A DNA stretch of 64,000 nt from Chitinophaga pinensis. Its GTDB lineage: Bacteria; Bacteroidota; Bacteroidia; UBA7662; JAIXUI01. The notes beneath the pieces are model-generated. The model saw nothing but the letters and a program-made list of their open reading frames with translations. It made no database searches and had not been told where the DNA came from. Position 1 is the stretch's first letter; each line of letters opens with the position of its first letter. Below, in pieces: positions 4,779 to 55,597 of the stretch. Position numbers and translations under genes: made by a program. The stretch is taken from assembly GCA_943373175.1 (NCBI GenBank), contig CALSBM010000002.1, positions 20,260 through 84,259 on the forward strand. Direction: 5' to 3'.

Positions 4779-4918
4779 TATAGCCCTTTCAATGTGTCGA
4801 TAGAATTAAGGAATTAGTCTTTTCAGAGCTGTTAAAATCTTTAAATTAACCTTCATTAAACCATTTATTGAGCTTCTTTATCTTACAATTCAAGAGCAGT
4901 AGCCATAACGGAGTAATC

Positions 4919-7900
4919 ATGAACAAAATAATCCTTTTTACAATCTGTATGCTGACGATGCTGGTGAGCCAGCGGTCTCATGCACAATTGGTGGTTTACC
5001 AAGTAAGCCCACAAACCACAACGGGCGGTAACCCGGGAGGAATCAATACTGATTCTGATACCTTATCCCGGTCATCTGGAAATGGGTTTACCCAGGTTTT
5101 AGGGCCAAACCAGATTTTTCCGATATACTCAGCTAAGCAAGCTATTCCTTTTAGTTTTCGTTTTGGAGGGCAGTTGGTTAGCGAGTTCGTTGTATCAACA
5201 ACCGGAATTCTGACTTTCGACACTAGCCGTGCAGGCGTGTTTTCTAGTCCGGTTGCAGGTGCTTTTACTTCTAACTTAATCCCAGATAAGTCTGTTGCAG
5301 TGTATTGGGAAAATTCTCCTTCTACCGGCACAAGCACCAATGACGTAGTAACCCGTAAGGTTTATGGAACAGCTCCTAACCGCCAGCTTTGGATTGATTG
5401 GTGTTCTATGGCAACAGGCAATGCTACCGACGCTTATTTCTCCGTTGTGATGGAAGAAACGACTAACAAAATTTATGTTGTCGATAAAAGAGTATTCACT
5501 GGAACCAACATAACCGGAACCGTTGGGGTTAAAGTAAGCAACACCAATTATGTTGAAGCCTTTGGCTCGCCGAATCTTGGTTTTACTTCTGGAACTCCTT
5601 TAGCCAATGACAACTACTATTACGAAATTTCGCAGCAAACGTATCAGACTGTAATTGGTCAAATTGGAACCGGAACCACCAACAACGCAGCAGGTGGATA
5701 TCCTTCTGTTTACGGCAATAACTTTTGGGGAGCAAAACATCAGTTCCTTATTCGCAAAAGTGAGCTTACAGCGTATTTAAACCGTCCACTTTTATCTGAG
5801 CTGAGTTTTTATGTAGTAACTCCGGGACAAGCTATCGCTTACAACAACTTTAGTATCAGCTTGAAAAATACTAATGCAGATTCTATAAACACTTTTCAAA
5901 CTGGATTTCAAACCGTCTATACCAATTCAAGCGTAGCAATCGATACAGGATGGAATAATCATCTCTTTAACAATCTCTTCCAATGGGACACTACTGGAAA
6001 CCTCTTGGTTGAAGTGTGTTTTAACAATACGGGCTTTACAGCCAACAACACCATTCTACAAAACACCCTCATGCCTTTCAGAAGCACGATGGTATTAAGA
6101 GGTGATAATGCAACAAATTGCTCAGGCCTTACTCCTTCATTTTCAGCTGATGTTAATCAATTCTTGAGACCTAACATGTTGCTAACTGGCATTGAAGCAT
6201 TCGCGGATTTGTTGCCACCGAGAGTTGACAGTCTAGGTCAAGTAGCTAGTTTGTGTAATCCCGCTCCAAAAACGGTAACTGCTCGTATTCTGGATAACCG
6301 GGGAGTGCTCAATGCAAGATTGATTTATTCCTTAAACAACGGCACTAACTGGGATACCGTTGCCATGACACTCAATGCAGGTCTGTACACTGGTAGTATT
6401 CCTGCCGGTACAGCAGGAGTAACGATACAATACACCGTTACAGCAGTTGACTCAGCAGGTAACATTACTGTTCCCCCTCCGGCTCTATCTTATCTCGATG
6501 GAGGATTAACCATCAATCTAGGCCCAGATCAAACCATTCCGGCAGGAGCTTCGGTAACTTTAGATCCTCAGGTAAACAAAGTACGGGGATTGAAGATTAC
6601 TGAAATGGTGCTTTCGAGAAATGCGATTTTTGCTAACCAGCTTCAACCAACTTATCCTTCTATCCTCGCTGGATTTACCGCATCAGATGAACTTATGGAG
6701 GTTCAAAATGTGAGTGACCAGCCGCTGAATGTTTCCGGTTTTACCATGGAATGGATAACAACTGGTGGGCCTGGAGGAGTAAATACCTATAGTGCAGTAA
6801 TTCCTACTGGCACAATTATACCGGCTGGCGGCTTTGTCTTCTTTGTCAGCGGTACTGTCTCTGATGCCAATAATCGCATTTTTGGCATGACAAGCCCTGC
6901 AAATGCGTATCAAACAGCTAATTCAGTAGGGTTTATTCTAAGAGATTCTGTAGGAAACATTGTTGATGTTTTGGCCATGAACGGCTTTAACTTCCCTGTT
7001 GCATCAGGTGTTACTGCTTCTGATTGGTTGGGTTCTATTCCTAGCAGTAACCAAAGAGCTGGCGTTCAGCGTATCAACGAAACTAACAACGCATCCGATT
7101 GGGTTATCACAACCGCAAATCAAATCATTACTTCCTTGGGAGCTACCAATGTTGGAATGACTAGTGATTATGCAAGCTACAGTTGGACGCGCACTAGCTC
7201 TGTTGGAATCTTTAGCACAGAACGGTCGGTTCAGGTAAGCCCAACGACAACCACAACTTACTTTCTTAATGCCGCCTCTAATAATTGTATAGTTCGCGAT
7301 ACTATTGTTGTGAATGTAATCGACTACTGTCAGGTTAGCACAGATTCAGTCCCGGTTTACATTCAGGAAGTTCTTTTTACTGGCTTGAGCAACTTTGGGT
7401 TCCCGACTACTAATGGCTATCAGTTTTTTAGTAATATATCTTCTCGTGTAATTCCAGGTTCAAGAAACAATATTCTGAGTGTTACTCCGGGATTTGTGAA
7501 TGGAACTGTCCCTGTTCATTTTAAAGCTTGGGTAGATTGGAATAAGGATGGTGACTTGTCTGATCCTGGTGAAGAAATTCTTAGTTCAGGCCCTGATACT
7601 ACCACTGTAAGACTTAACTATACTGTACCAAGTAACGCATCACAAGGCATTTCAAGATTAAGAATAGGAATTTTCACCACTTCTGGTGTTGGTCCATGCG
7701 ATACTACAGCGTTTGGTGATTTTCACGATTACCCCATTGAAATAGTTCCTTCATCTGTAGATACTAATAAACCAGTATTCGCAAGCTTGAATACCATAAC
7801 TCCTCAATGCAACCCTACAGCAAGGAGTATTCAGTCAGTTTGGTCTGATAACTTTACGGTTGACAGCGTTTATCTTGACTATTCAATCGACAACGGAGCA

Positions 7901-21909: not shown

Positions 21910-22115
21910 AAAGAAAGAATCCTTCGACTGTACTGAAGACATTGGGGGAGCTAGCATCCGAAGGTTGAGTGCTTCACCAAAGTTTAAGCATACAAAAACA
22001 GTAGCTCCTCTCTGCTTAATGCCAATGAAATAAGTTGAGTGCTTCTTTCTCGCTCACTTGTTAAACCCGTCCAAATTGCCAATATTGTAATCGACATTTT
22101 GTCAACGATATTGAC

Positions 22116-25070
22116 ATGCTATTCCCTTGTTTCTCATGGTTCAGCCTTAACTTTGGCACGCTCTCCGTAGAGCGCCTGCTCGAAGAGGCCTCCCGGCGCG
22201 GCTACCGAAGGCTGGCACTGGCAGACCTCAACAACACCTCGGGCATTCCCGACTTTTTACGGCTGGCGCCTAAGTACGGCATTCAACCTGCGGTTGGTGT
22301 AACCTTCGCTGAAGGCAGCCAACTGCGTTACGTGGCCTTAGCACAGGATGCCGAAGCTTATGCTGAAATCAACCGACATCTGTCGCAGCAACTCAAAACT
22401 GGCACTATGCCGCGACGGCGAGCCGAAGGCCTGCATCATGCTCGCGTTGTGTATCCCACAGGCAGCTACGGCGGCTGGCGGTTAAGGCCCAATGAGTTTG
22501 TGGGTGTTAACCTCGAAGAACTCCGCCACTGGCAAATCAGGCGTAAAGGCCTTCCCGAAGACAGTCTCGTGTTTGCTCACCCTGTTGTAGGCCTCGGCCC
22601 TTCTGATTACAACACTCATCGGCTTCTACGCGCTATCGATCAGAACATCCTCTTGAGTCGTCAGCAACCCGGCAGTCTCGCCCCTCGCTCCTGGCTTATG
22701 CCCGAACCGGAACAGCTTCGCGAAGCGGCAGCTAAAGCTCCGGAACTCTTCCGCCGAACCCGCTACCTATTCGATAGCTGCCAACTTAACCTCGGATTTG
22801 GTCAGCCAAAAAACCGCCATCACCTTGGTTCAGATGCCAATTATGACCGCGAACTACTCCGTAAGGAAGCAGAAGTCGGCGCATTTAGCCGCTATGGCCA
22901 TTGCTCCGGCGAAGTACAGCAACGCCTCAACCATGAACTTCAACTCATTGAATCGCTGGGCTTTACCTCCTACTTCCTTATCTGCTGGGATATGCTCTGC
23001 TTTGCACGCAGCAAAGGCTACTTCTACGTCGGGCGAGGGTCTGGAGCTAACAGCATCGTTGCCTATTGCTTGCTTATCACCAACGTGGATCCGCTAGAAC
23101 TCGACCTCTTCTTCGAGCGATTTATCAACCCCAACCGCAGCTCTCCCCCCGACTTCGACATCGACTTCTCCTGGAAAGACCGCGACGATATCCTGCGCTA
23201 CCTATTTGAACGGTATGGAGAGGAACACGTCAGGCTACTCGGAACCTATACCACCTACCAACAGCAGGGCGTTTTGCGTGAGCTGGGTAAAGTATTTGGC
23301 CTGCCACGACAAGAAATCGAAGAGTTGCCACGATGGTTGCATGAACCACCACCTGCCGACAGCACCCTCACCAAAACCCTGATACGCTATGCCAAACGCC
23401 TGCTCGATACTCCGGCACACCTATCTATTCATGCAGGTGGTGTGCTCATTTCTGAAAAACCAATGCATTATTACACCGGCACTTTCTGGCCCCCGAAGGG
23501 ATTCCCGGTGACCCAATTCTCTATGCTTGAGGCCGAAGACCTAGGATTGTACAAATTCGACATCCTCAGCCAACGGGGACTCGGACACATACGGGAAGCC
23601 GTGGACCTGATACGGGAAAACCGGAATGAAGAAGTAGATGTACACGACATCATCGGTTTCAAGCGAGACCCCGCCATTAAGGCCCTCATCCGGGAAGGAC
23701 ATACGCTTGGCTGCTTTTATGTAGAATCGCCGGCTATGCGCATGTTGCTACGAAAACTGCGGGCGGAAGAATATCCTGATTTGGTAGCCGCCAGCTCCAT
23801 CATCCGGCCAGGCGTGGCGCGCTCAGGCATGATGAAGGAGTACATCCTGCGCTTCCGGATGCCTGAACGGCGGCAACTGGCGCACCCCGCACTCATGAAA
23901 CTCCTGCCCGACACCTTCGGCATCATGGTGTATCAAGAAGATGTAATCCGGGTAGCCCATCAATTTGCTGGCATGAGCCTCGCCGATGCCGATGTGCTCC
24001 GTCGGGGTATGTCGGGTAAGTTCCGCTCCCGTGAAGAGTTTGCCAGGGTGCGAGAAATCTTCTTCGAAGGCTGTTGCCGGCAAGGCCATCCGGATGTGCT
24101 CAGTAAAGAAATCTGGTTTCAGATCGAAAGTTTTGCCAGCTATTCCTTCTCCAAAGGCCATTCAGCCTCCTTTGCAGTAGAAAGTTTTCAGAGTCTTTGG
24201 CTGAAAGCGCACTATCCTTTAGAATTCATGACCGCCGTCATCAACAATTTCGGAGGATTCTACCGTACCGAGTATTACGTTCATGAAGCGCGTCGTGCAG
24301 GTGCTCAGGTGGAAGCGCCGTGCGTGAACCATTCAGGATTGCTGTCGCGGCTTGAAGGGCAGATTTTATGGCTGGGGTTCACCCACTTGCAGGGATTCGA
24401 AAGTGCTTCAGTTGAAAAAATGATGGCAGCCAGAATGCGCCACGGCGACTTTCACTCACTAGAAGACTTTCTGGTACGCACCGGATTATCCACCGATCAA
24501 ACAAGGCTTTTAGTTCGAATTGGCGCCTTTCGCTTTACCGGACGGAGTCGCCAAAACCTGCACTGGGAGTTGTTTGGGCTGGCACGTCAGCAGCATTCAC
24601 AGCCAGCAGACATTCCTGTAGCCTTGTTCGAAACACCGGCTGAACAATTTGAACTTCCACCGCTTGACGACACCCCTACTGCACTTGCCTTTGATGAGCT
24701 TGAGCTATTCGGCTTCTCTCTCAGTAGTCCATTCCTTTTGATTCAGCCCGACGCTTTGCAGGACAACGGGATGCGAGCGAAGCAACTGCCGGCAAAAGCT
24801 GGGTTGGCAGTGACTGTTTTTGGCTATCTGGTGACGGTTAAAAGTACTCGAACCATCACGCGGGAAATCATGGGCTTCGGCACCTTCCTCGACATTGAAG
24901 GCGACTGGATTGATACTGTCCACTTTCCGGATACTTACCGCAAGCACCCTTTCCGAGGGAGTGGTTGTTACCGAATTTCAGGGAAAGTGACGGAAGAATT
25001 CGGGTTCTACAGCATTGAAGTGGACTCTATGGAAAAACTCCCTTTAAGAAATAGATGGGATTTGCCATAA
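22116..25070 (+). CDS. dnaE2: DNA polymerase III alpha subunit, DnaE2-type (error-prone)
   Basis: PHP-like N-terminus, VGRGSGANSIVAY, PDFDIDF, HLSIHAGG, KFDILSQRGL, YSFSKGHS and a C-terminal OB fold. At 984 aa it lacks the long C-terminal extension of replicative DnaE. Confidence 0.88.
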   Translation: MLFPCFSWFSLNFGTLSVERLLEEASRRGYRRLALADLNNTSGIPDFLRLAPKYGIQPAVGVTFAEGSQLRYVALAQDAEAYAEINRHLSQQLKTGTMPRRRAEGLHHARVVYPTGSYGGWRLRPNEFVGVNLEELRHWQIRRKGLPEDSLVFAHPVVGLGPSDYNTHRLLRAIDQNILLSRQQPGSLAPRSWLMPEPEQLREAAAKAPELFRRTRYLFDSCQLNLGFGQPKNRHHLGSDANYDRELLRKEAEVGAFSRYGHCSGEVQQRLNHELQLIESLGFTSYFLICWDMLCFARSKGYFYVGRGSGANSIVAYCLLITNVDPLELDLFFERFINPNRSSPPDFDIDFSWKDRDDILRYLFERYGEEHVRLLGTYTTYQQQGVLRELGKVFGLPRQEIEELPRWLHEPPPADSTLTKTLIRYAKRLLDTPAHLSIHAGGVLISEKPMHYYTGTFWPPKGFPVTQFSMLEAEDLGLYKFDILSQRGLGHIREAVDLIRENRNEEVDVHDIIGFKRDPAIKALIREGHTLGCFYVESPAMRMLLRKLRAEEYPDLVAASSIIRPGVARSGMMKEYILRFRMPERRQLAHPALMKLLPDTFGIMVYQEDVIRVAHQFAGMSLADADVLRRGMSGKFRSREEFARVREIFFEGCCRQGHPDVLSKEIWFQIESFASYSFSKGHSASFAVESFQSLWLKAHYPLEFMTAVINNFGGFYRTEYYVHEARRAGAQVEAPCVNHSGLLSRLEGQILWLGFTHLQGFESASVEKMMAARMRHGDFHSLEDFLVRTGLSTDQTRLLVRIGAFRFTGRSRQNLHWELFGLARQQHSQPADIPVALFETPAEQFELPPLDDTPTALAFDELELFGFSLSSPFLLIQPDALQDNGMRAKQLPAKAGLAVTVFGYLVTVKSTRTITREIMGFGTFLDIEGDWIDTVHFPDTYRKHPFRGSGCYRISGKVTEEFGFYSIEVDSMEKLPLRNRWDLP

Positions 25071-29455: not shown

Positions 29456-29887
29456 TTGAGTAGCATTCAAAAAGTTAATTACAAGAGTCCGGATGAACTT
29501 TTAAATCATCTTCCCGAAGAACAGGTTCTTATGATGGAATGGCTCATGCAATACATTTCGGAGGTACTTCCTGAGTGTACGATAAAAATGAACTTCAACG
29601 CGCCGTTTTATCGTAGGAAGAAAAATCTTGTTTACCTCTGGCCTTCTGCTCTTCCATGGGGAGGAATCACTACTGGGGTTGCTGTTGGTTTTATTCACGG
29701 TCATTTACTCAGTAACGATCAGGGCTGGCTTTCAATGGGTAATCGTAAGCAGATTGGAATCCGGGTATTTAACAGTGTTCAGGAGTTACAACAACAAGCT
29801 GAAATGTTGAACATGTACTTACTTGAGTCGGCAATGATAGAAGATGAGCTATCAGCACGCACAAAAAAAGCCGGAAGAACACCATAG
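29456..29887 (+). CDS. DUF1801/YdhG-like protein
   Basis: Size and pattern (LPEC...FNAPFY...LVYLWPS...GFIHGHLL...R.FNS) resemble DUF1801. TTG start. Confidence 0.65.
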   Translation: MSSIQKVNYKSPDELLNHLPEEQVLMMEWLMQYISEVLPECTIKMNFNAPFYRRKKNLVYLWPSALPWGGITTGVAVGFIHGHLLSNDQGWLSMGNRKQIGIRVFNSVQELQQQAEMLNMYLLESAMIEDELSARTKKAGRTP

Positions 29888-29900
29888 GCTCTTCCGGCTT
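29863..29900 (-). terminator. Terminator for the minus-strand polysaccharide module, overlapping the 3' end of the DUF1801 gene
   Basis: AAGCCGGAAGA...TCTTCCGGCTT, with an A7 tract on the left that reads as a U tract on the minus strand. Confidence 0.75.
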
Positions 29901-29921: not shown

Positions 29922-32141
29922 TTAGCTCAGCGTATAACTTTTTTCATTGAAGCTAAGGGTCAAAATCTTCTTGATAATTCTCCTTAACCTGCTTCTCTTC
30001 TTAGGCACTTCACCGAATACCGATTCTAGCTTATAAGGCGCAACAACATTGAGGAACAAAGAAATGTTGTTGTTGGTTGCTTTGCGGAATAAGTTCAGGG
30101 AATGATTATCAGAATCTGTCCAAACCTTATTGGCCGCAGCAATTAATACAGAATGGGTTGCTTGGCGAACAATCTGTACAGGAATTGGGTTATCAATCAA
30201 AGCCGGAAGCTCTAAGATGATTAGTTTAGGATTAATTAATCCAGGGTGGTCATCTGGTAGGAAATCGCTTAAGGAGGCGTAATCAACAAAGTTGGTGTGA
30301 ATGACATAACTGATGTCGTTATTGGAAACACGCTCTATATCGCGGTAATTCTTGTAGTTATTGACAGTTATCGGGTGAATGAAATAAACTCCATCCATGA
30401 TATCGGAGAATTTGTTGAAGAGTTTACTTCCAACCCAAGTTTTACCTACTTCAGTCTTAGTAGAGAAAAGCAGCAAAAGATTGTAAGGCTGAGGATTATC
30501 AACTTTTCCAAATTCGATTTTTATACTAGAAAGCGAGTGCTCAATGAGTGCAGCCTCCAAGTAGTCTAAGTCAATTAACTTCTCTGAGGGATCTATCAAA
30601 GGCAAAGCGCCCAACATATTGAGGCCGGTAGCCTGCTCTGCACGAGTGATTGATTTGAGTGTATTGTCTAAGAACTCGACCGTTACAAAGAATCCAAGAG
30701 CCAATACAAATCCGCCTATAAACGATACAACAATCAAAAGCGGACGTTTAGAAGGCTCAGGTTTCTGTGGGAAGAATGGCGCATCCACCATTTTAAGATT
30801 CGAAGACAACTCGATGTTTTGTTGACGCAATTGCGCCATGTTTAATCCATGGAGCAACTGAAGGTATTCCTTCTCAATGATATCAACGTTTCTATTGAGG
30901 CGATTTAAGGTTGAACCAAGAGGAGCAAATTGGTTGTAAATGCCGTCAAACTCGATTTTCCTTTTCTCAATAACCCGCATTTTGGCTTTGCTTTCATCCA
31001 GATTGAGGATGTTGTCGAGCCATTGGTTGAGTAAGTTTTGACGTGGCACCGATTCAATGGTGTTGTTTAACCTAAAATACTCATCAACCAACCTTCTGAT
31101 TTCTTCTTTTAACTGCTCAGTTTTCGATACCAGTTTAGCAATTTCCTGAGGGTTTTCATTGGCAATACGCGCATTAGCAAGAAGAAAATTGGCACTCGAA
31201 AGCTCGGAGCGTTTTTCCATAAGCTTTTGTGTGTTCATGAGTACCATACTACGTGAGCCTATTTTTTCTTCGAGGCGTTTAAGGGCAGCCTCAGCAGACT
31301 CAATCTCCATTTTCTCACGGTAGATTTCCTTTTCAAGTTCTTCCTTTGCTTCGGCTATATACTTAGTTTGCTCGTCGTAGTTGATGATTTTATTTTTAAT
31401 TCCAAAATCCCTCAACTCATCCTCGGCACCTTTCAGTTTTCCGAATGTTTTGGAAGTCTGGTCTGCGAAATAACCTACAACACTTTCTGTTTCTGAGCCT
31501 TTATTCCTTTTATACCTGGACATAAAGACATTAGCCAGTGTTACCAACGTTTGCTGAGTTACACCGGGGTCATTTCCTTTGAAGCTTAAGTCCAACATAT
31601 CGGAGCTTTGCTTACGTGCAACAGTCATGTTTCTGGTAATAGATGCAATTCCGTACGTGGGGTTGTCGGAATTGAGGAGCGAAATGATTTCGTTCTTGTA
31701 ATGGGCATTTTTATACCTGACAATATTGCCAACGGTATTTTCGAGTGAGTATTTATCTACGAGTTTATCTCTTAAACGGGCAGGGATAATCTCTTGCAAC
31801 TCTCTGAAACCACCTGAAGAAAGTAATTCTGCTTTAGGTTGGTTCAGCATTAAATGTTGAGCTAACAACCTCAGTGCTACTTCTTCGATGGTTTCCCTTG
31901 CCTTAACGGTTGCAATCAAGTTATCGAAGGCGTTATTTACCGCAAAGTAGTCCACCCGGGTCTCTTCGGTACTCATAATTGAAACACCAGAAGCAAGTCC
32001 TGTGTACATCAGGCAGTTTGACACATATTCCTTTTTCTCATTACGAGTGAAAAAGAATACGACCAGAGCCAGCGTGAGTGGAAAGAGCACCAGCCATCTA
32101 AGGTTTTTGATGATAATCCGAATAAAATCGACCAAGCTCAT
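29922..32141 (-). CDS. GumC/Wzc-like polysaccharide co-polymerase with degenerate P-loop C-terminal domain
   Basis: N-terminal TM, long coiled-coil periplasmic region, second TM (PLLIVVSFIGGFVLALGFF), then STKTEVGKT Walker-A-like motif. Confidence 0.8.
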   Translation of the reverse strand: MSLVDFIRIIIKNLRWLVLFPLTLALVVFFFTRNEKKEYVSNCLMYTGLASGVSIMSTEETRVDYFAVNNAFDNLIATVKARETIEEVALRLLAQHLMLNQPKAELLSSGGFRELQEIIPARLRDKLVDKYSLENTVGNIVRYKNAHYKNEIISLLNSDNPTYGIASITRNMTVARKQSSDMLDLSFKGNDPGVTQQTLVTLANVFMSRYKRNKGSETESVVGYFADQTSKTFGKLKGAEDELRDFGIKNKIINYDEQTKYIAEAKEELEKEIYREKMEIESAEAALKRLEEKIGSRSMVLMNTQKLMEKRSELSSANFLLANARIANENPQEIAKLVSKTEQLKEEIRRLVDEYFRLNNTIESVPRQNLLNQWLDNILNLDESKAKMRVIEKRKIEFDGIYNQFAPLGSTLNRLNRNVDIIEKEYLQLLHGLNMAQLRQQNIELSSNLKMVDAPFFPQKPEPSKRPLLIVVSFIGGFVLALGFFVTVEFLDNTLKSITRAEQATGLNMLGALPLIDPSEKLIDLDYLEAALIEHSLSSIKIEFGKVDNPQPYNLLLLFSTKTEVGKTWVGSKLFNKFSDIMDGVYFIHPITVNNYKNYRDIERVSNNDISYVIHTNFVDYASLSDFLPDDHPGLINPKLIILELPALIDNPIPVQIVRQATHSVLIAAANKVWTDSDNHSLNLFRKATNNNISLFLNVVAPYKLESVFGEVPKKRSRLRRIIKKILTLSFNEKSYTLS

Positions 32142-32153
32142 GGTTACAAATGT

Positions 32154-32924
32154 TTATTTTCTAAGCTTTGAAATGGATACTCCAACAGTAGTTTCCAACT
32201 GATTGAAGGCAATAGTGAAGGAGCGTTTGGCCATTTCAAAGTTATTTTCATTGATGGTTACCGTTTGCATGATTTGAGTATAAGATGCCAAGTCTAAGAC
32301 TCCATCACGAAAAGATTTTTCAGCGAGCACCAAATTGATTTTAGAAGACTGAGTTGCATCGTTATGAATCCTCATCAACCGATAAAAGGCGAGTACATCG
32401 TTGTACTCCATAATTATCTGACGACGCAACACTAACTCTGCTTCTTCTTTCTTGTATTTGGAAGCCTTCAAATCCATTTTGGTAGCATTAACTTTTGCTT
32501 GACGGCCAAAGATTTCATACAAAGGTAATCTGAGGTTTAATCCAAATGCGACTCCATTACTTAAAGTCGACGACTGCGCCTGTCCAAGCCCTGAATTAGA
32601 CTGTAGTATCAAATCCTGATTACCTGCTGTCACATTCACAAACGGAATCATCCCATTCATCCATGAATAGCGATCAACATTAATCTGTTGTTCGGTTTTG
32701 GATATCACGGCATCGTTAAACTTCAAGGTAGGGCTATTCTTTAGCGCAATTTTTACGATGGAATCAAGAGGCAGTAATTGTTCTGAAAGATCCTGTTGTA
32801 TGTCACCAAAAAGGGCAAGCTCATTTTCTAATAGTAACGAATCTTTTACTTGCGCCTTTAACTGAGGAGATAAAGCCCAAAAAATCAGAATTAGGCAGCT
32901 ATAGTTAGGCCACTTCAGTTTCAT
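32154..32924 (-). CDS. TolC/outer-membrane efflux family protein with a single OEP repeat (256 aa)
   Basis: Signal peptide, LDSIVKIALKNSP, two beta-strands (FVNVTAG, GLNLRLPLY) and long amphipathic helices ending QLETTVG. Confidence 0.75.
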   Translation of the reverse strand: MKLKWPNYSCLILIFWALSPQLKAQVKDSLLLENELALFGDIQQDLSEQLLPLDSIVKIALKNSPTLKFNDAVISKTEQQINVDRYSWMNGMIPFVNVTAGNQDLILQSNSGLGQAQSSTLSNGVAFGLNLRLPLYEIFGRQAKVNATKMDLKASKYKKEEAELVLRRQIIMEYNDVLAFYRLMRIHNDATQSSKINLVLAEKSFRDGVLDLASYTQIMQTVTINENNFEMAKRSFTIAFNQLETTVGVSISKLRK

Positions 32925-32925
32925 A

Positions 32926-34119
32926 CTATACGTTCTCTTTTTGAAGAAGTGCTGGAATCGTTCTGAGAATCAGATTGATATCATGCCAAAAGCTGTAATT
33001 TTTTGCATAATCATTATCCAGACTCATGCGCTCCTCCTCTGACATTTCTCCTTTTCCTCTTTTCATAACCTGCCAAAGGCCAGTAATTCCAGCCGGAGCG
33101 AGAAACCTGAGCGAGAATTGGTCAGTTGTAATTTTTTCAGCTTCGTACAAGGGCAATGGGCGATTTCCTACTAATGACATATCGCCTTTCAATACATTGA
33201 AAAGTTGAGGAAGTTCATCAATACTGGTGTTCCGGATGAACTTCCCTACTTTAGTGATGCGTGGATCATCCTTGATTTTCACGAAAGCTGACCCTGCCTT
33301 AGCCTTTTTGATTCTAGCGTATTCTTCCTCCGTAACCATCTGACCATCCATATAGAGCAAGTCTGGATTGAGCAGATCTAATTCACCCGAAAGAGACATT
33401 GTTCCTTGGCTGGCAGACTCTGTTTCTGCAACCACATTGTTATACTGGTTTAAATGCGCAAGCTCTTTCAGTTTGGCATCAGCGCCAGTGAACATAGACC
33501 TAAACTTGTAGAATTTGAAAATCTGATACCCAGTACCTACTCTTAATGAATAGTAAAACACAGGCCCTTTCGATTCAAATCGTATGGCGATAGCAACAAT
33601 TAGAAATAAAGGAAGAAGAAAAACCAAAGCAACGCTGCAAACCAATACATCGAAAATGCGTTTGGATAGCGGCATTTTATACTTTAGTTGATCCGTGTGT
33701 TTAATATCAATATGGGCATTCAATGCCGGAGGGTTTTCTATCAAGTAATTAAACCTGAGTTTTAACCCATCTGTATCATGAAGGCTTTCATAAATATCAT
33801 TGAGTCCCTCTTTGAGTGCAATAGAGGCAACCCTTGGATTGACTTCATCTAATAACAATACAAAAGGCAGTTTCCAAAGATGTTCATTGCGCAAAGTTCT
33901 AAGCAAAGGCAATCCATTAACATCGTAAAGGTTGCATTTGGAAACAACCAAGTCTATGGATTGATCATGTTTGACAGCGTCAACAAAGTCGAAACCGCTT
34001 TTGAACGTAATAACATGGTAATCATTACCGAATTTATCGGTGAAATTGTGGTTGATTTCCGGATCCTGGCAAATAAGTCCTATGGTTTTCATGCTTTCAT
34101 CTGAGGTGTTGGAAGACAT
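32926..34119 (-). CDS. Sugar transferase (monotopic phosphoglycosyltransferase, WcaJ/PglC-like) with N-terminal receiver-like domain
   Basis: KRIFD...GPVFY...KFRSM...DDPRITKVGKFIRNTSIDELPQLFNVLKGDMSLVGNRP. The first ~130 aa follow a REC pattern. Confidence 0.9.
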   Translation of the reverse strand: MSSNTSDESMKTIGLICQDPEINHNFTDKFGNDYHVITFKSGFDFVDAVKHDQSIDLVVSKCNLYDVNGLPLLRTLRNEHLWKLPFVLLLDEVNPRVASIALKEGLNDIYESLHDTDGLKLRFNYLIENPPALNAHIDIKHTDQLKYKMPLSKRIFDVLVCSVALVFLLPLFLIVAIAIRFESKGPVFYYSLRVGTGYQIFKFYKFRSMFTGADAKLKELAHLNQYNNVVAETESASQGTMSLSGELDLLNPDLLYMDGQMVTEEEYARIKKAKAGSAFVKIKDDPRITKVGKFIRNTSIDELPQLFNVLKGDMSLVGNRPLPLYEAEKITTDQFSLRFLAPAGITGLWQVMKRGKGEMSEEERMSLDNDYAKNYSFWHDINLILRTIPALLQKENV

Positions 34120-34121
34120 GA

Positions 34122-34499
34122 TTAGAGCCTGAGGCGGCGGAAAATGTTATCAATTCTAGCATCTAACTCTTCCGGATTGAAGGGCTTGACCAAGTAGTCA
34201 TCGGCTCCTGCTCTCAAGCATTTAATTTTGTCGGCAGTAGAATCATTTCCTGATAAAGTAATCAAGGGCAATTCCTTAAAAAGACCACTGGTTCGAACAT
34301 GTCGGATAAACTCGATACCGTTGATTTCAGGCATATTAATATCTGCAACAATGATATCCGGGATGTTTCCAGCTTGCAACCAACCCAATGCTTCCTTTCC
34401 GTTAGCTTTAGATACTACTTGGTATCTGCTGCCAAAATAAAGTTCAAGTAATTTAAGAATGGTCTTTTCGTCATCAACCGCGAGAAGCACTTTTTTCAT
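34122..34499 (-). CDS. Single-domain response regulator (receiver only)
   Basis: VDDE, DIIVADINMPEING, LSG and GADDYLVKPF show intact canonical residues. Confidence 0.93.
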   Translation of the reverse strand: MKKVLLAVDDEKTILKLLELYFGSRYQVVSKANGKEALGWLQAGNIPDIIVADINMPEINGIEFIRHVRTSGLFKELPLITLSGNDSTADKIKCLRAGADDYLVKPFNPEELDARIDNIFRRLRL

Positions 34500-34540: not shown

Positions 34541-35524
34541 CTATTTAGAGACGTACATAACTTCTTTAACTGCCTTCACAATCTTCTCTACACTTGGCAG
34601 ATAAGCTTGCACTAAAGGCAGTGAATAAGGCATAGGAACATCTGTTCCATTAACCCTAAGTACAGGAGCGTCGAGGTAATCAAAAGCATCTTTCTGAACA
34701 CGGAAAGCTATCTCAGATGAAATGCTGGCAAAAGGCCAAGATTCGTCGATAACTACAATTCTGTTTGTCTTTTTAACTGATTCAATGATGGTTCGAGTGT
34801 CGAGAGGGCGGATTGTACGCAAGTCTATAACTTCAGCAGAAATGCCCTCTTTTTCCAATGCTTCAGCAGCAGCAAGGGTCACTTTCATCATTTTATTGTA
34901 AGAAACCAACGTTACATTGTTGCCTTGGCGTACAACATCTGCAAGCCCAATGGGGATGATGTACTCTCCATCAGGAACTAAGCCTTTGTCGCCATACATC
35001 TGTTCAGATTCCATGAAAATAACCGGATCATCGTCGCGAATGGCTGCTTTCAATAATCCCTTAGCGTCTGCAGGGTTAGAAGGTGAAACGACTTTCAAGC
35101 CGGGGCAGTTGGCGTACCAGCTTTCAAAAACCTGACTGTGTTGTGCCGCTAAAGTTCCTGCTGAGCCTGATGGTCCACGAAACACCATGGGTATGTTGAT
35201 TTGCCCACCAGACATGGACAACATTTTCGCTGCGGAGTTAATAACTTGGTCAATAGCGACCAATGAAAAATTAAACGTCATAAACTCAATTATCGGGCGA
35301 AGGCCGTTCATCGCTGCACCAACTCCAATTCCCGCAAAACCGAGTTCAGCAATAGGCGTATCGATAACACGGCGGGAGCCAAATTCTTCGAGCATTCCTT
35401 GGCTTACTTTGTAAGCACCATTATACTCTGCAACTTCTTCGCCCATCAAAAAGACGCGCTCATCACGACGCATTTCTTCAATAAGGGCTTCCCGCAATGC
35501 TTCACGAAACTGAATTTCTCTCAT
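34541..35524 (-). CDS. pdhB: Pyruvate dehydrogenase E1 beta subunit
   Basis: [13 protein letters not shown]...[16 protein letters not shown]...AAQHSQ...DLRTIRPLD. Confidence 0.95.
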
Positions 35525-51772: not shown

Positions 51773-52411
51773 CTATACTAATTTTTGACGTATTGCTTTA
51801 GATACCGCTTCAGAGACTGAGTGAACATTGAGTTTTTCGTAAATTTTCTTGATATGGCTTCTAACAGTATCAATGCTGATGAGTAATTCGGCTGCAATCA
51901 TTTTATAGGAAAAGCCATCTACCAACAATTTTAGCAATTGCCTTTCTCTCGCAGTTAACCCGTATTGTGGCGTTGGCGACTGCTGTTCTGAAAAAAACTT
52001 AAGTACTTTCTGAGCTATTGCTGCACTCATCGGAACTTCGCCGTTTCTAATATCGACTATTGCCGATAAAAGCCTTGTCGGGGTTGTTTTCTTGAGCAGA
52101 TAACCATTAGCGCCGCGCTTCAATGCTTCAAAAAGATGGTCATTATCATCAAAAACGGTGTACATGATAACGGGAAGCTCAGGTTTGATGGATTTCACCT
52201 TAGTGAGCGTATCTAACCCATTAAGTACTGGCATGTCAATGTCCATGAGGATGACATCAGGAAACAGAGACCCTATAGCCTTTTCAACATGTTCACCATT
52301 TTCAAACATTCCTACGAGGTTAAAGTCTTCACTTAGAGAGAAGAGCTGACTAAGGCTCAAACGCAAGTCAGGATTATCCTCGTAAACTAATAGCCTGAGT
52401 GGTTGATCCAT
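51773..52411 (-). CDS. NarL/FixJ-family response regulator (REC + LuxR HTH)
   Basis: DVILMDIDMP, GANGYLLK, LTARERQLLKLLVDGFSYKMIA...TVRSHIKKIYEKL. Confidence 0.95.
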   Translation of the reverse strand: MDQPLRLLVYEDNPDLRLSLSQLFSLSEDFNLVGMFENGEHVEKAIGSLFPDVILMDIDMPVLNGLDTLTKVKSIKPELPVIMYTVFDDNDHLFEALKRGANGYLLKKTTPTRLLSAIVDIRNGEVPMSAAIAQKVLKFFSEQQSPTPQYGLTARERQLLKLLVDGFSYKMIAAELLISIDTVRSHIKKIYEKLNVHSVSEAVSKAIRQKLV

Positions 52412-52446
52412 TATTCAAATGACCGCCAATTTTTTTCAGGATACAA

Positions 52447-52462
52447 TCACATTTTTATGTGA
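52447..52462. promoter_or_regulatory. Palindrome TCACAT-N4-ATGTGA between the kinase and regulator genes
   Basis: Exact 6-bp inverted repeat 35 bp upstream of the regulator start. Confidence 0.5.
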
Positions 52463-52471
52463 ATATCCCCA

Positions 52472-55462
52472 TCAACTTGGCAGTTTAAATCTTAATTTCC
52501 AATGAGTTCCCAATCCGGGTTTAGAATGAAGTTCACATTCTGCTTGAATTTGTGCAGCACGTTGATGAATGTTGCTCACACCGTTTCCTCCTTTTCTTAC
52601 TTTTTGCAAATCGAATCCGCAGCCATTGTCTGATAAGTCAATCGCAATAGATTTCGAATCTACCCTGAGGGCGATACTCATTTCAGTGGCAGCAGAATGT
52701 TTAGCAGCATTGTTTACAATTTCCTTAAAGAGGAGGTATAAATGCTGACGAGTATCCATGGGTATCGCAGCTTGTTGTAGGTCGCCGGTAACCTTAAAAG
52801 TGAGTTCAATGCCCATAGCTTCCAACGTCTGAGCTGCAAATTCCCTCATTCTTGCCACAAGTTCCGGGAGTGCATCGTTTGTGGGCTTAATGGACCAGAC
52901 GATGTCAGAAACCCGTTCCATCATTTCTTGGGTGCTGTTTCCGATTCTATTTAGCAACTCTGAGGCATTTTCCGGCTTTCTTTTCGCCAGTTCTGTTAGA
53001 ATATTCACACTCGATAACGTTGCTCCAAGGTCATCGTGCAAATCAGAGGCTATCCGCTGGCGGACTTTTTCCAGCTCCTTTTTTCTCTTCATCTTGATTC
53101 TCCAGTAAGAATAAACTATGCTTCCAAGAAACAACGTTGATCCTAACAGGAACCACCAGGTAGTATAGAAAGGTGCTTTAACTTCAATCGTAATGAAACT
53201 TGATTTTCCCTTTGGCTCACTTTCGTATTGACCTGCAAACTCTAACTGATACTTGCCTGGAGGCAAGTATGATAACGTGATGGTTCGGCCTTCCGTGATG
53301 CTTTGCCACTCGTTGCTCTTGTTAACAAAGCGATAGGAATACCTGATTTTAGTAGCATCAATTAAAACTCCGGAAGTAAGATCTAGTTCTAAAGTATTCG
53401 CGCTAGTCTGAAGTGTATAATTAGCATCAATTGGAGCATTTATTTCTTTACCATTCATTCTAATTGCAGCAATAGAGGCAACAGGTGCTGATTTCTTTTT
53501 AAAGAATTCTGGAATTGAAAGAGTGTAAATAAATTTAGGGTCAATAAAAACTAATTCATTTTTATCGATAATGGCATTCGACGTATTTTCTTCGTCTTCA
53601 ATGCCATCGAATACGTTTAATTGTTTTAAAGCATCCAGCTTCTGTTTGAGGTACACGAGAAACCCGGTGTTGGTTTGGATCCAAACATTGAGAAAAGAAT
53701 CAGGGAAAATATTAATAACACGATTGTGGGGAACTTCCTGGTTATTAACAAGATGTATCCACTTTTTAGAATGGCCATCAAGAAACCACACGCCCGATTC
53801 TTCCGTACCAACCCATAAATTACCATTTGGCATTTCCCGAACTGCCGATAACGTTGGCATGTCATAAGAAGATCGGTTGTAATCTCCCGGAAAACGAATT
53901 GACTTCCACGAAAGCGTATTCGTATCGAGTTGACCCAATCCGTTATGATGTATATTGAACCAAATGGCCCTCGTTCCAACTCCTCCTCCAGAAAAATTTA
54001 TTGATGGAAGGTTCAACTCTTTGGCGGTGCGAAATACTAGACTATCTTTTCCCCAATGATAATACATCACTTGGTGTCCTACAGTGCCTAAAACGTAGCG
54101 CATAGAATCAAGTTGAAGAACTTGAAAAGATTTTAATTGCGGATAGCGGCATTCAGGTTCATGAAATACGACCGTATCTGCATTCGAGTACTTGACTTTT
54201 AACTTAGCAATACCCATATATCCCGTAAGCAGTACCTCATTTTCTTTTATTCTAAAGCAGTTAAACACCGCTCCATCTGTTATGCGATAATGGTTGTTAA
54301 GAAGCCAACATTTCCCATTATTACGGGAGATGGCATAAACACCGCTATAACCATTTCCAAGTAACCAATCCGAGTTCAGCACCATCATCTGATAATAGTC
54401 CGGTATTTCTGGGAATTTAGAGATATAATGAATTGGAATTCGTTTAAGAAAATGCCGTTTAGTGGAAATCACGGATAATCCTTTGTCTGTAGATACCCAA
54501 AGAAGTCCTTGATTATCCACCAATAACCCATAATTCTCTATAAAAAATGGAATGCGGTATTTAGGATCAGCCGATTTAAGTATTGTAGCCGTCCAATCTT
54601 CAGGATTAACAATCAAAACGCCATTTCCAAAAGAAGTAATGGCAATTCTACCATCGGTTAATGCGGCAAATTGAAAGGAAACAAATTTTTCGTTCAAACT
54701 TCCATTCAAACACTTCAATTTAATTTTTTCAATTTGCTTAGTAAATGGATTCCACACAATTAATCCATTAGCCCAACCACCGGAAAGTATTCGTCCATCC
54801 TTTAATTGTGCGATAGGTCCTTGAACTGGTTCAACTGGGTTAAGATATATTTTATCGACTTTTAATGTTAATTTATTTAACTGATAAAGACCATAAAAAG
54901 CGCTGAAATAATGGTAATCGCCTGAATTGGTAATCAGGAATCGATTAGCAATAACATCCGATATTAATTTTACAACTTTTGGCTTTCGGGAATCATATAA
55001 ATAAACCCCCATACCACCGCTAATAAATACTCGGAATTTATCAAGCGGCTTCACTGAAAAAACTCTTTTTATGTTTTCACTATTAAGCGGCTTAGGTAGC
55101 AGTATATGCCGCCATTTTAAGGTGTAAACATTTACCATCGAAAGCCCTCCTCTATGGCCCACGAGCATGATGGAATCTCCCCAAGGACTCAGTGCTTCAA
55201 TATGATTATTCCAAACAGGGCCTTCCGGTTGAAGATTTCGGAATACTCTAAATCGATACCCGTCGTAACAGTTTAAACCACTTTTGGTTCCTGCCCAAAT
55301 TATTCCTCTTTGATCCTGAGCTATACAAAATACTGCGTTATGGGAAAGCCCGTCTAACTTGGTAAAGTGTCTGATGCGTTGGAGGTTGTCCTCCAGAACA
55401 CCAGCACAGACAAGAGGGGGCAAGGCCATGCACAGCAACAGGAAGCACCAATGTCCTCTCAT
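52472..55462 (-). CDS. Sensor histidine kinase: beta-propeller (Reg_prop) + Y_Y_Y + TM + HisKA_3 + HATPase
   Basis: DGLSHNAVFCIAQDQRGIIWAGT, LPPGKYQL, PFYTTWWF, RIASDLHDDLG, DNGCGF, GNGVSNI, GLGT. Confidence 0.93.
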   Translation of the reverse strand: MRGHWCFLLLCMALPPLVCAGVLEDNLQRIRHFTKLDGLSHNAVFCIAQDQRGIIWAGTKSGLNCYDGYRFRVFRNLQPEGPVWNNHIEALSPWGDSIMLVGHRGGLSMVNVYTLKWRHILLPKPLNSENIKRVFSVKPLDKFRVFISGGMGVYLYDSRKPKVVKLISDVIANRFLITNSGDYHYFSAFYGLYQLNKLTLKVDKIYLNPVEPVQGPIAQLKDGRILSGGWANGLIVWNPFTKQIEKIKLKCLNGSLNEKFVSFQFAALTDGRIAITSFGNGVLIVNPEDWTATILKSADPKYRIPFFIENYGLLVDNQGLLWVSTDKGLSVISTKRHFLKRIPIHYISKFPEIPDYYQMMVLNSDWLLGNGYSGVYAISRNNGKCWLLNNHYRITDGAVFNCFRIKENEVLLTGYMGIAKLKVKYSNADTVVFHEPECRYPQLKSFQVLQLDSMRYVLGTVGHQVMYYHWGKDSLVFRTAKELNLPSINFSGGGVGTRAIWFNIHHNGLGQLDTNTLSWKSIRFPGDYNRSSYDMPTLSAVREMPNGNLWVGTEESGVWFLDGHSKKWIHLVNNQEVPHNRVINIFPDSFLNVWIQTNTGFLVYLKQKLDALKQLNVFDGIEDEENTSNAIIDKNELVFIDPKFIYTLSIPEFFKKKSAPVASIAAIRMNGKEINAPIDANYTLQTSANTLELDLTSGVLIDATKIRYSYRFVNKSNEWQSITEGRTITLSYLPPGKYQLEFAGQYESEPKGKSSFITIEVKAPFYTTWWFLLGSTLFLGSIVYSYWRIKMKRKKELEKVRQRIASDLHDDLGATLSSVNILTELAKRKPENASELLNRIGNSTQEMMERVSDIVWSIKPTNDALPELVARMREFAAQTLEAMGIELTFKVTGDLQQAAIPMDTRQHLYLLFKEIVNNAAKHSAATEMSIALRVDSKSIAIDLSDNGCGFDLQKVRKGGNGVSNIHQRAAQIQAECELHSKPGLGTHWKLRFKLPS

Positions 55463-55597
55463 TGTGGACAATTTAATTGACAATTTTTAAAGCAACATCA
55501 GACTTCTTACAGAACTTTTGATTTACAGTTTTTTGACATCTTTAAACACTGATAAACAAGTACATACATCACAATAACTTCGACAAAAATTAAAACT

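Follow-up and report, generated by a model that had tools for sequence, protein, structure and literature searches.

A small phosphoglycosyl transferase with a degenerate receiver domain and its adjacent canonical receiver in Bacteroidota

Why would an enzyme that starts the synthesis of a surface polysaccharide carry a receiver domain devoid of its phosphorylation site, next to a separate gene that encodes an apparently intact receiver? This question is raised by two adjacent genes in a stretch of 64,000 nucleotides of DNA assigned to Chitinophaga pinensis (Bacteroidota; GenBank assembly GCA_943373175.1, contig CALSBM010000002.1, positions 20,260 to 84,259 of the forward strand; hereinafter the window, with a GC content of about 43%). 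One of these genes encodes a stand-alone receiver, that is, a single-domain response regulator of 125 amino acids (aa), at 34122..34499 on the minus strand, and the other encodes a small monotopic phosphoglycosyl transferase (PGT) of 397 aa, at 32926..34119 on the same strand with the stop codon included, in which a receiver-like domain is fused to the catalytic part. Surface-polysaccharide pathways draw on common, limiting pools of undecaprenyl phosphate and nucleotide sugars, and, to our knowledge, little is understood of how bacteria gate the first committed step in each of them; EpsW/EpsZ, reported in 2025, is the only experimentally supported case known to us in which a response regulator acts on an initiating PGT directly. 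The receiver/PGT pair described here, as we argue below, probably switches sugar-coat synthesis at the protein level.

The fused domain comprises residues 10-130 of the PGT (33730..34092, minus strand), as delimited from the AlphaFold2 (AF2) fold, Foldseek matches and alignments. Its sequence is IDLVVSKCNLYDVNG, and its alignments with CheY and with the free neighbor yield the following residue equivalences. Lys61 (33937-33939) stands in place of the phospho-acceptor Asp, C17/Q18 (within LICQD) occupy the position of the acidic pair, L90 (within PFVLLL) that of the beta4 Thr/Ser, S112/L113 (within NDIYESL) that of the Lys-Pro dipeptide, and I109 that of the switch aromatic residue, Y106 in CheY. 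The preliminary description of this DNA had reported both the replacement of the acceptor Asp by Lys and the loss of the acidic pair, the beta4 Thr/Ser and the Lys-Pro lysine; these readings stand, and all the motif strings that it quoted are present on the minus strand. The fused domain and the free receiver share 25% identity (pairwise BLASTP, E 1e-8), and the Pfam Response_reg profile matches residues 32-109 of the PGT with 27.0 bits, below the cut-off of 30.2.

The fold of the domain is predicted with high confidence. In the AF2 model of the window PGT, which was built on 74 homologues, residues 11-130 have a predicted local distance difference test score (pLDDT) above 90 and adopt the (beta-alpha)5 topology, in the order b1a1b2a2b3a3b4a4b5a5; the pLDDT of the fused domain is also above 90 in a second, divergent member of the family, the four-cysteine relative P0076. 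A Foldseek comparison with the PDB places the domain close to receivers of the OmpR/PhoB class (target template modeling (TM) score of 0.79-0.86 and root mean square deviation (rmsd) of 2.2-2.5 A over ~120 columns), the matches being ArcA (1xhf/1xhe), RstA, VicR, PmrA, CpxR and KdpE, with a target TM of 0.85 and an rmsd of 2.3 A over 122 columns for ArcA 1xhf. These models dispel the concern, voiced in the preliminary description, that the N-terminal domain might not have the receiver (REC) fold at all. The fused domain is a REC-fold pseudo-receiver in which canonical phosphorylation is impossible. Phosphorylation at a shifted Asp was considered as well, with D56, D66 and D19 as the candidates, and was rejected: none of these is conserved, Asp being present in 29% of the sequences at D56 and in 33% at D19, and position 66 being dominated by Gly, and the metal-binding residues and the Lys are missing from the fused domain as well.

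The loss of the receiver chemistry is a property of the entire family. A word-index search with the PGT produced 8,000 matches, of which the best 120 are nearly all Bacteroidota "sugar transferases" of 380-460 aa, with a query coverage of 79-100% (90% or more in most) and an identity of 42-91%; one is a fragment of 312 aa. Together, 119 sequences from this search and 71 from genome loci make up the 190 members in which the fused domain was scored, and the complete receiver active site, that is, an acidic residue, Asp, Ser/Thr and Lys together, is found in 0/190. The acceptor column is occupied by Glu in 55 members, Tyr in 35, Asp in 23, Gly in 14, Lys in 13, Ala in 9 and by other residues in the rest, and its entropy of 3.2 bits over the 126 non-redundant members indicates that it is unconstrained. 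The acidic pair is almost always lost, V, L or I predominates at the Thr/Ser position, and the Lys is kept in 40 members; in the minority with an acceptor-column Asp, the metal-binding acids and the Ser/Thr are missing nevertheless.

The free receiver, by contrast with the fused domain, is canonical, in agreement with the preliminary description. The 125-aa protein, with the sequence DIIVADINMPEING, matches Pfam Response_reg with 93.6 bits and contains every catalytic and switch position, namely, D9/D10, the acceptor D53 (34341-34343), S83, Y102 and K105-P106, which are the equivalents of D12/D13, D57, T87, Y106 and K109-P110 of CheY, respectively; the numbering of D53 and K105 is the same as in PhoB. 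Across the 72 receiver/PGT pairs that could be compared (about 40 of them non-redundant), the equivalents of CheY D57, S/T87 and K109-P110 are present in 72/72 free receivers and that of D13 in 71/72. With all these residues in place, the free receiver is presumably phosphorylatable. Given the intact free receivers and the absence of a complete site in any of the fused domains, it appears that, family-wide, phosphorylatability has been preserved in one partner, whereas loss of the chemistry has been tolerated in the other.

The two genes are strictly paired. Scanning one genome per species yielded 80 loci, of which 76 contain a relative of the free receiver (open reading frame (ORF) search and BLAST), with 33-100% identity and mostly 120-150 aa in length; the four loci with no receiver match are one from Chloroflexota, one cyanobacterial, one other PGT with no fusion and one incomplete contig. 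In each of the 71 scorable loci, the PGT gene is directly preceded, in the same orientation, by that of a canonical free receiver, at a spacing of -44 to +63 nucleotides (nt), with a 23-nt overlap in 28 loci. The paired loci span Chitinophagaceae, Sphingobacteriaceae, Mucilaginibacter, Pedobacter, Parapedobacter, Cyclobacteriaceae and metagenome-assembled genomes (MAGs) of Bacteroidales; the nearest public relative of the window locus is a pond Bacteroidetes MAG (L001). In the window, the PGT gene starts 2 nt past the stop of the receiver gene, in a different reading frame. A single gene split by a frameshift was ruled out, the two genes having their own starts and stops in 71/71 scorable loci. 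The invariable adjacency, often with overlap, strongly argues for functional coupling of the receiver and the PGT, which is what the preliminary description had supposed.

The same loci bear on the explanation that the free receiver is merely co-expressed with the PGT and acts elsewhere, for example, on the polysaccharide co-polymerase (PCP)-like, kinase-like protein encoded downstream, as a phosphate sink, or as a phosphorelay connector with a sigma-54 regulator or a hybrid kinase, the pseudo-receiver having an unrelated structural role. The PCP-like gene is a frequent neighbor (47/71 loci), sigma-54 activators with receiver domains are encoded directly upstream of the pair in L002, L003, L007 and L008, and a hybrid PAS-HisKA-REC kinase precedes it in L017, all of which would suit such a role. 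However, these associations are loose in comparison with the receiver/PGT adjacency, at 47/71 for the PCP-like gene and ~6/71 for the sigma-54 family against 71/71, and no such regulator or kinase is located nearby in the window, so that we consider mere co-expression quite improbable.

The catalytic half of the PGT is intact. The Pfam Bac_transf profile (PF02397) matches residues 153-392 with 199.8 bits (cut-off 27), covering profile positions 1-178 of 179, and the motifs KFRSM, DPR, DELPQ, GxRP and PG(I/L)TG are all present and invariant in 74 aligned relatives; the catalytic region was also aligned to WbaP. The IDELPQ motif (33205..33222, minus strand), which the preliminary description had correctly given as intact, includes the D301-E302 dyad, and D301, E302, L303, P304 and Q305 are invariant in the 74 sequences; the Asp-Glu pair is the catalytic dyad of monotopic PGTs, as established from PglC and WbaP. 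Because the catalytic motifs are all intact, the PGT is a plausible regulated output enzyme. Residues 151-182 (LSKRIFDV...LLPLFLIVAIAIRFE; 33574..33669, minus strand) form a predicted re-entrant membrane helix in the AF2 model, with the invariant P170, and K153, R154 and D157 are the other invariant columns in this region. The best structural match of the C-terminal part is PglC (8e37, target TM 0.74). There is a single long helix on the N-terminal side, the rest of the N-terminus being a soluble REC fold with no four-helix transmembrane bundle, and the models of large PGTs all score below their cut-offs (TIGR03025, 242.7 vs 295.55 bits; WbaP, 213 vs 403; WcaJ, 201 vs 411), so the window enzyme is classified by these features as a small, PglC-like PGT with an added N-terminal soluble receiver-fold domain.

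What, then, has been retained in the pseudo-receiver? The best-conserved polar residues among the 126 non-redundant members are D108 (33796-33798, minus strand), which is acidic in 99%, and R122 (33754-33756, minus strand), which is Arg in 94% and basic in 99%; F110 (aromatic in 97%), A101 and L126 are conserved as well. Overall, the domain evolves fast: a word-index search with the pseudo-receiver alone gave no matches, and phmmer with a 149-aa pseudo-receiver query against 1.8 billion cluster representatives gave 61 matches at E <= 1e-3, 2 of them at E <= 1e-10, which are weak, of mixed lengths, and too few for charting other architectures or triple fusions of a receiver, a pseudo-receiver and a PGT. 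This low conservation, along with the scrambling of the former active-site columns, is what would be expected if the N-terminal domain were an evolutionary remnant of a functional receiver-PGT fusion with no present role. We consider this very improbable, given that the fold is kept at very high predicted confidence in divergent members, that the surface residues D108, F110 and R122 are conserved at 94-99%, and that the domain is retained across at least four orders of Bacteroidota, when a useless domain of 130 aa would be expected to be lost.

In the free receiver, the positions of the two conserved charged residues of the pseudo-receiver, D108 and R122, are occupied by D101 and R115, respectively, and we take both pairs to be the counterparts of the central charged residues of the alpha4-beta5-alpha5 interface of OmpR/PhoB receivers, from mutational work on PhoB. 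Dimerization of OmpR/PhoB receivers via this face is described by Gao et al. (2008; PMC2586830), and, in the passages of that article on which we draw, two central charged residues, which are not numbered there, are called absolutely conserved and crucial for dimerization of PhoB. The free receiver of the window carries the full OmpR/PhoB-type signature of this face (K91, D100, D101, E111, R115 and R122), whereas the pseudo-receiver keeps just the central Asp/Arg pair, with the peripheral salt-bridge positions lost. Judging from these alignments, the switch has been lost from the pseudo-receiver and the core of the receiver-receiver contact surface appears to have been kept.

In the mechanism that we envisage, an unlinked histidine kinase would phosphorylate the free receiver at D53, as suggested by its intact chemistry, and the phosphorylated receiver would bind the pseudo-receiver-PGT, to which the 71/71 synteny and the EpsW/EpsZ precedent point. 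The pseudo-receiver, with its retained fold and conserved D108/R122, would be the interaction surface through which the signal reaches the catalytic domain in the membrane, working by pairing with the free receiver, by self-dimerizing, or both. The switched step would be the transfer of sugar-1-phosphate to undecaprenyl phosphate, the committed step of repeat-unit initiation, and, with the phosphorylated receiver binding the PGT and altering the rate of this step, control of the PGT would be post-translational. That the free receiver directly regulates the PGT, for which the synteny and the analogy with EpsW/EpsZ speak, seems to us about evenly balanced between true and false. A more specific version is a "split response regulator", in which the phosphorylated receiver pairs with the pseudo-receiver via alpha4-beta5-alpha5 and so gates the PGT, at a minimum in the subfamily with the insert, in which the central Asp/Arg pair is present in both partners; this version we regard as possible but doubtful.

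Several observations weigh against direct control of the PGT and, in particular, against pairing of the two receivers. The D101/R115 equivalents are both retained by the free receiver in just 20 of the 72 pairs (class A, which includes the window), both are replaced in 45 (class B), typically by Ala/Ala in Sphingobacteriaceae, and the remaining seven are mixed. The Asp of the GA.DY motif is common in many families of receivers, and its conservation may have a partly structural basis; the Arg is more specific. Conservation of the Asp/Arg pair in the pseudo-receiver would be better explained by self-association of this domain than by a symmetric heterodimer. Furthermore, the module has no linked kinase in the window, and its neighbors vary among relatives, some of which have sigma-54 regulators of the NtrC type, and one a hybrid PAS kinase; being in the same operon would, by itself, be consistent also with a receiver that acts on a protein other than the PGT.

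Classes A and B largely reflect a division of the family into two subfamilies, one consisting of the window locus and L001-L020 and the other of L021-L070, from Sphingobacteriaceae and Chitinophaga. The catalytic domain contains an insert of ~44 aa in class A that is absent in class B, the KFRSM-DDPR spacing being 73-79 aa in the window-type subfamily and 30-35 aa in L021-L070. The acceptor position of the pseudo-receiver is variable in class A and mostly Glu in class B, and the lost Lys-Pro position is variable in class A and Tyr-Pro in class B. The D108 position of the pseudo-receiver, in contrast to its counterpart in the free receiver, is maintained in both classes, being acidic in 20/20 of class A and Asp in 45/45 of class B, as is the R122 position, which is basic in 20/20 and 45/45. 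Since the pair is kept in class B where the partner pair is missing, a symmetric heterodimer of the free receiver and the pseudo-receiver is not the general mechanism; in the subfamily of the window, a symmetric heterodimer held together by reciprocal Asp-Arg bridges is possible. The interpretation in the preliminary description, namely, that the phosphorylated free receiver docks on the pseudo-receiver to turn glycan initiation on or off, is thereby sustained in so far as the fused domain is an unphosphorylatable pseudo-receiver of the REC fold, its neighbor is canonical and presumably phosphorylatable, and the two are coupled, but fails as a family-wide rule if the docking is taken to be symmetric.

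Self-dimerization accounts for the Asp/Arg conservation in both classes, which the symmetric heterodimer does not do in class B, and this brings up the alternative in which the pseudo-receiver is a constitutive, phosphorylation-independent homodimerization domain that makes the small PGT dimeric, with the receiver, much as EpsW does on EpsZ, binding a composite surface of which the catalytic domain is a part and stabilizing or breaking the dimer instead of pairing with the pseudo-receiver. Atypical regulators of the OmpR/PhoB family that lack the acceptor chemistry provide the parallel. Along with the retention of D108/R122 regardless of D101/R115 of the free receiver, this alternative is favored by the best structural matches of the domain, which are OmpR/PhoB receivers including activated dimers such as ArcA bound to BeF3 (1xhf), and by the EpsZ-EpsW model, in which EpsW contacts the cytoplasmic and catalytic domains and promotes dimerization (PMC12802240). 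Small monotopic PGTs are reported as monomers, however, so that the need for dimerization is not evident (PMC12802240), and the alternative overlaps with the mechanism outlined above and does not exclude it; taken by itself, we consider it unlikely. As readings of the sequence data, docking of the free receiver on the pseudo-receiver and self-dimerization of the latter are equally good, and they do not conflict: a pseudo-receiver dimer might, for instance, be capped by the phosphorylated free receiver or face competition from it. The preferred reading, direct control of the PGT by the free receiver, would accommodate either arrangement.

The closest known system is EpsW/EpsZ of Myxococcus xanthus, where the phosphorylated single-domain regulator EpsW activates the large monotopic PGT EpsZ post-translationally (Schwabe et al., mBio 2025, PMC12802240). 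The evidence there consists of proximity labeling, heterologous activation and a 2:2 AlphaFold-Multimer model with an interface predicted TM score (ipTM) of 0.88, in which EpsW touches both the cytoplasmic domain of unknown function (DUF) and the catalytic domain and favors dimerization (PMC12802240). The window pair resembles EpsW/EpsZ in combining a single-domain regulator that has all the phosphorylation residues with the initiating monotopic PGT of a Wzx/Wzy-type pathway. EpsZ is a large monotopic PGT that possesses a transmembrane bundle at its N-terminus as well as a cytoplasmic DUF, whereas the window enzyme is a small one in which the pseudo-receiver is the sole extra domain; judged by the curated models, neither window protein is an orthologue of its Myxococcus counterpart (the free receiver scores 69.3 vs the cut-off of 200 bits on the EpsW model NF041866, and the PGT 163.5 vs 800 bits on the EpsZ model NF041877), and the phyla differ, Bacteroidota as opposed to myxobacteria. 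The kinase of EpsW is DifE, whereas the window receiver has no linked kinase. Control by direct protein contact, as in EpsW/EpsZ, would be a further likeness of the window pair.

Two other systems share parts of this design. According to the paper on EpsW/EpsZ, which cites O'Toole et al. 2021, small monotopic PGTs can be fused to receivers, with the regulation unexplored (PMC12802240). As in these proteins, known to us through the citing paper (O'Toole, Imperiali & Allen, PNAS 2021, via PMC12802240), the receiver in the window enzyme is N-terminal to a PglC-like PGT; from the bare receiver-PGT architecture, as far as the citing paper conveys it, the Bacteroidota family is set apart by the universal degeneracy of the fused receiver and the canonical free receiver that is always adjacent. 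All4160 of Anabaena PCC 7120 is a STAS-Bac_transf protein in which the STAS domain is phosphorylated on Ser by partner-switching kinases (bioRxiv 10.64898/2026.04.08.717354). Like the window PGT, it is a small Bac_transf protein with an N-terminal signaling-type domain for which control of polysaccharide-layer synthesis by phosphorylation has been proposed; however, the STAS domain of All4160 is itself phosphorylated, whereas the fused domain of the window protein is not phosphorylatable and the phosphorylatable partner is a separate protein.

Neither of the window proteins has a DNA-binding domain, in contrast to the OmpR/PhoB family that the two receivers resemble; the full interface signature of this family in the window free receiver is another likeness, and in the Sphingobacteriaceae-type subfamily the central pair is lost from the free receiver. 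REC folds that lack the acceptor chemistry, such as the PleD D2 adaptor, HP1043, ChxR, FrzS and the KaiA N-domain, are phosphorylation-independent dimerization or docking modules. These known pseudo-receivers are joined to DNA-binding, GGDEF or coiled-coil outputs, whereas the one in the window is joined to a membrane enzyme of glycan initiation. In PleD, the true receiver that packs against a pseudo-receiver is part of the same polypeptide; in the window, the two are separate gene products.

Literature searches (pseudo-receiver with polysaccharide, receiver with PF02397, and related queries) returned no work on this Bacteroidota module and no experiments on receiver-PGT fusions. The general principle of a response regulator acting on a PGT and the bare receiver-PGT architecture are already known; within the searchable literature, the universal degeneracy of the fused receiver, the obligatory canonical free partner, the retained Asp/Arg pair and the two subfamilies appear to be new. 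With this family, a related arrangement is seen to be hard-wired in another phylum, where the gene for a small PGT with a dead receiver is always accompanied by that for a canonical free receiver. Should the two receivers pair, they would represent a clear natural instance of receiver/pseudo-receiver heterodimerization controlling an enzyme, offer a simple two-protein system for the study of allosteric control of monotopic PGTs, and supply a rule by which thousands of "sugar transferase" genes in Bacteroidota could be annotated; if the receiver and the PGT indeed form a split response regulator, a trans-acting receiver-receiver switch that operates on an enzyme rather than on transcription would be Bacteroidota-wide.

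The receiver and the PGT are the first two of four near-gapless genes on the minus strand, encoding proteins of 125, 397, 256 and 739 aa, in this order. The third gene (32154..32924) encodes a half-size outer-membrane efflux protein (OEP; TolC-like) that matches Pfam OEP with 68.4 bits and, weakly, CmeC. It contains one OEP repeat only, whereas the protomers of the TolC family consist of two, and it may be an unusual exit component for polysaccharide in the outer membrane that replaces a Wza-type protein. The last gene (29922..32141) encodes a PCP or chain-length-determinant-like protein of 739 aa, with 86.5 bits for TIGR03007 and 24.4 bits for GNVR, below the cut-off on every curated model. 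Its C-terminal region is degenerate and P-loop-like, with just a Walker-A-like STKTEVGKT, where the C-termini of its relatives match P-loops of the ParA/AAA_31 type, and may be a degenerate domain akin to bacterial tyrosine kinases (BY-kinases). A strong intrinsic-terminator-like hairpin, with a 13-bp stem followed by a T-run (29868..29900, minus strand), starts 22 nt past the stop of the 739-aa gene and is the probable end of the operon. A scan for sigma-70 promoters around the operon found 13 against a shuffled expectation of 13.2, the scan being one that does not cover Bacteroidota promoters.

The genes downstream of the pair in relatives are those of polysaccharide synthesis. In many of them, the half-size OEP gene directly follows the PGT gene and precedes the PCP-like gene (~720 aa), which is 1 or 2 genes downstream of the PGT; Wzy_C polymerase-like proteins, acetyltransferases and glycosyltransferases of family 2 (GT2) are the other recurrent neighbors. 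These associations indicate that the receiver/PGT module heads Wzx/Wzy-type polysaccharide clusters, of which the window site has just the first four genes. In the window, the pair stands at the head of a four-gene operon for polysaccharide initiation and export, composed of the receiver, the PGT, the OEP and the PCP-like protein, in which it would act as a two-gene signaling unit.

Upstream of the receiver gene in the window are housekeeping genes, one for a pyruvate dehydrogenase E1-beta-like protein (35524..34541) and one for a short-chain dehydrogenase, and no kinase or sigma-54 regulator adjoins the module there. In relatives, the response regulator of the sigma-54 NtrC type encoded directly upstream of the free receiver in L002, L003, L007 and L008 lies at ~4200-5600, and the kinase upstream of the free receiver in L017 is a hybrid of PAS, HisKA, HATPase and REC domains (1979-5173); these neighbors hint at the signaling pathway that feeds the module. 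In 18-22 loci of Sphingobacteriaceae, a single-module nonribosomal peptide synthetase (NRPS; C-A-T-TE, ~1340 aa) and a phosphopantetheinyl transferase are encoded just upstream of the receiver/PGT pair, with examples in Mucilaginibacter-type loci (L032, 440-4471, and L057, 4492-5256).

The insert by which the two subfamilies differ is located between the motifs KFRSM (33493-33507) and DDPR (33259-33270), both on the minus strand, in a stretch of 74 residues (PGT residues 210-283; 33271..33492). The preliminary description had noted an insert of about 70 aa, which is right for the distance between the motifs and too long for the insert itself: insert-free relatives have 30-35 residues at this site, so the subfamily-specific part is ~44 aa. 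A CxxC...C...C motif is found in this insert in 72/119 sequences, that is, in most of the insert-bearing relatives (P0008, P0019, P0034 and P0076 among them), and looks like a small zinc-binding element. In the window protein and its closest relatives (P0002, P0003, P0005 and L001), the length of the insert is kept and there are no cysteines; the confidence of AF2 in the insert is low, with a pLDDT of 36-68 in the window protein and 31-54 in P0076.

Elsewhere in the window, a separate two-component pair is encoded at 51773-55483 on the minus strand, consisting of a sensor kinase of 1003 aa (Reg_prop/Y_Y_Y, HisKA_3) and a LuxR-type response regulator. This kinase (55483..52472) is the only obvious one in the window and is unlikely to be the kinase of the orphan free receiver, given that it has its own LuxR-type partner adjoining. 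A DNA polymerase III alpha-like gene (984 aa; 22116-25070, plus strand) coincides with a 2-kb block of 54% GC (22001-24000), against about 43% in the rest of the window. By its GC content and its giant proteins, the window as a whole resembles a Bacteroidota chromosome. Three consecutive giant ORFs of 1518, 2309 and 3331 aa occupy 222-21803 on the plus strand; the first of these encodes a lamin-tail domain and a C-terminal sorting domain of type IX secretion, and the three products are probably secreted or cell-surface proteins.

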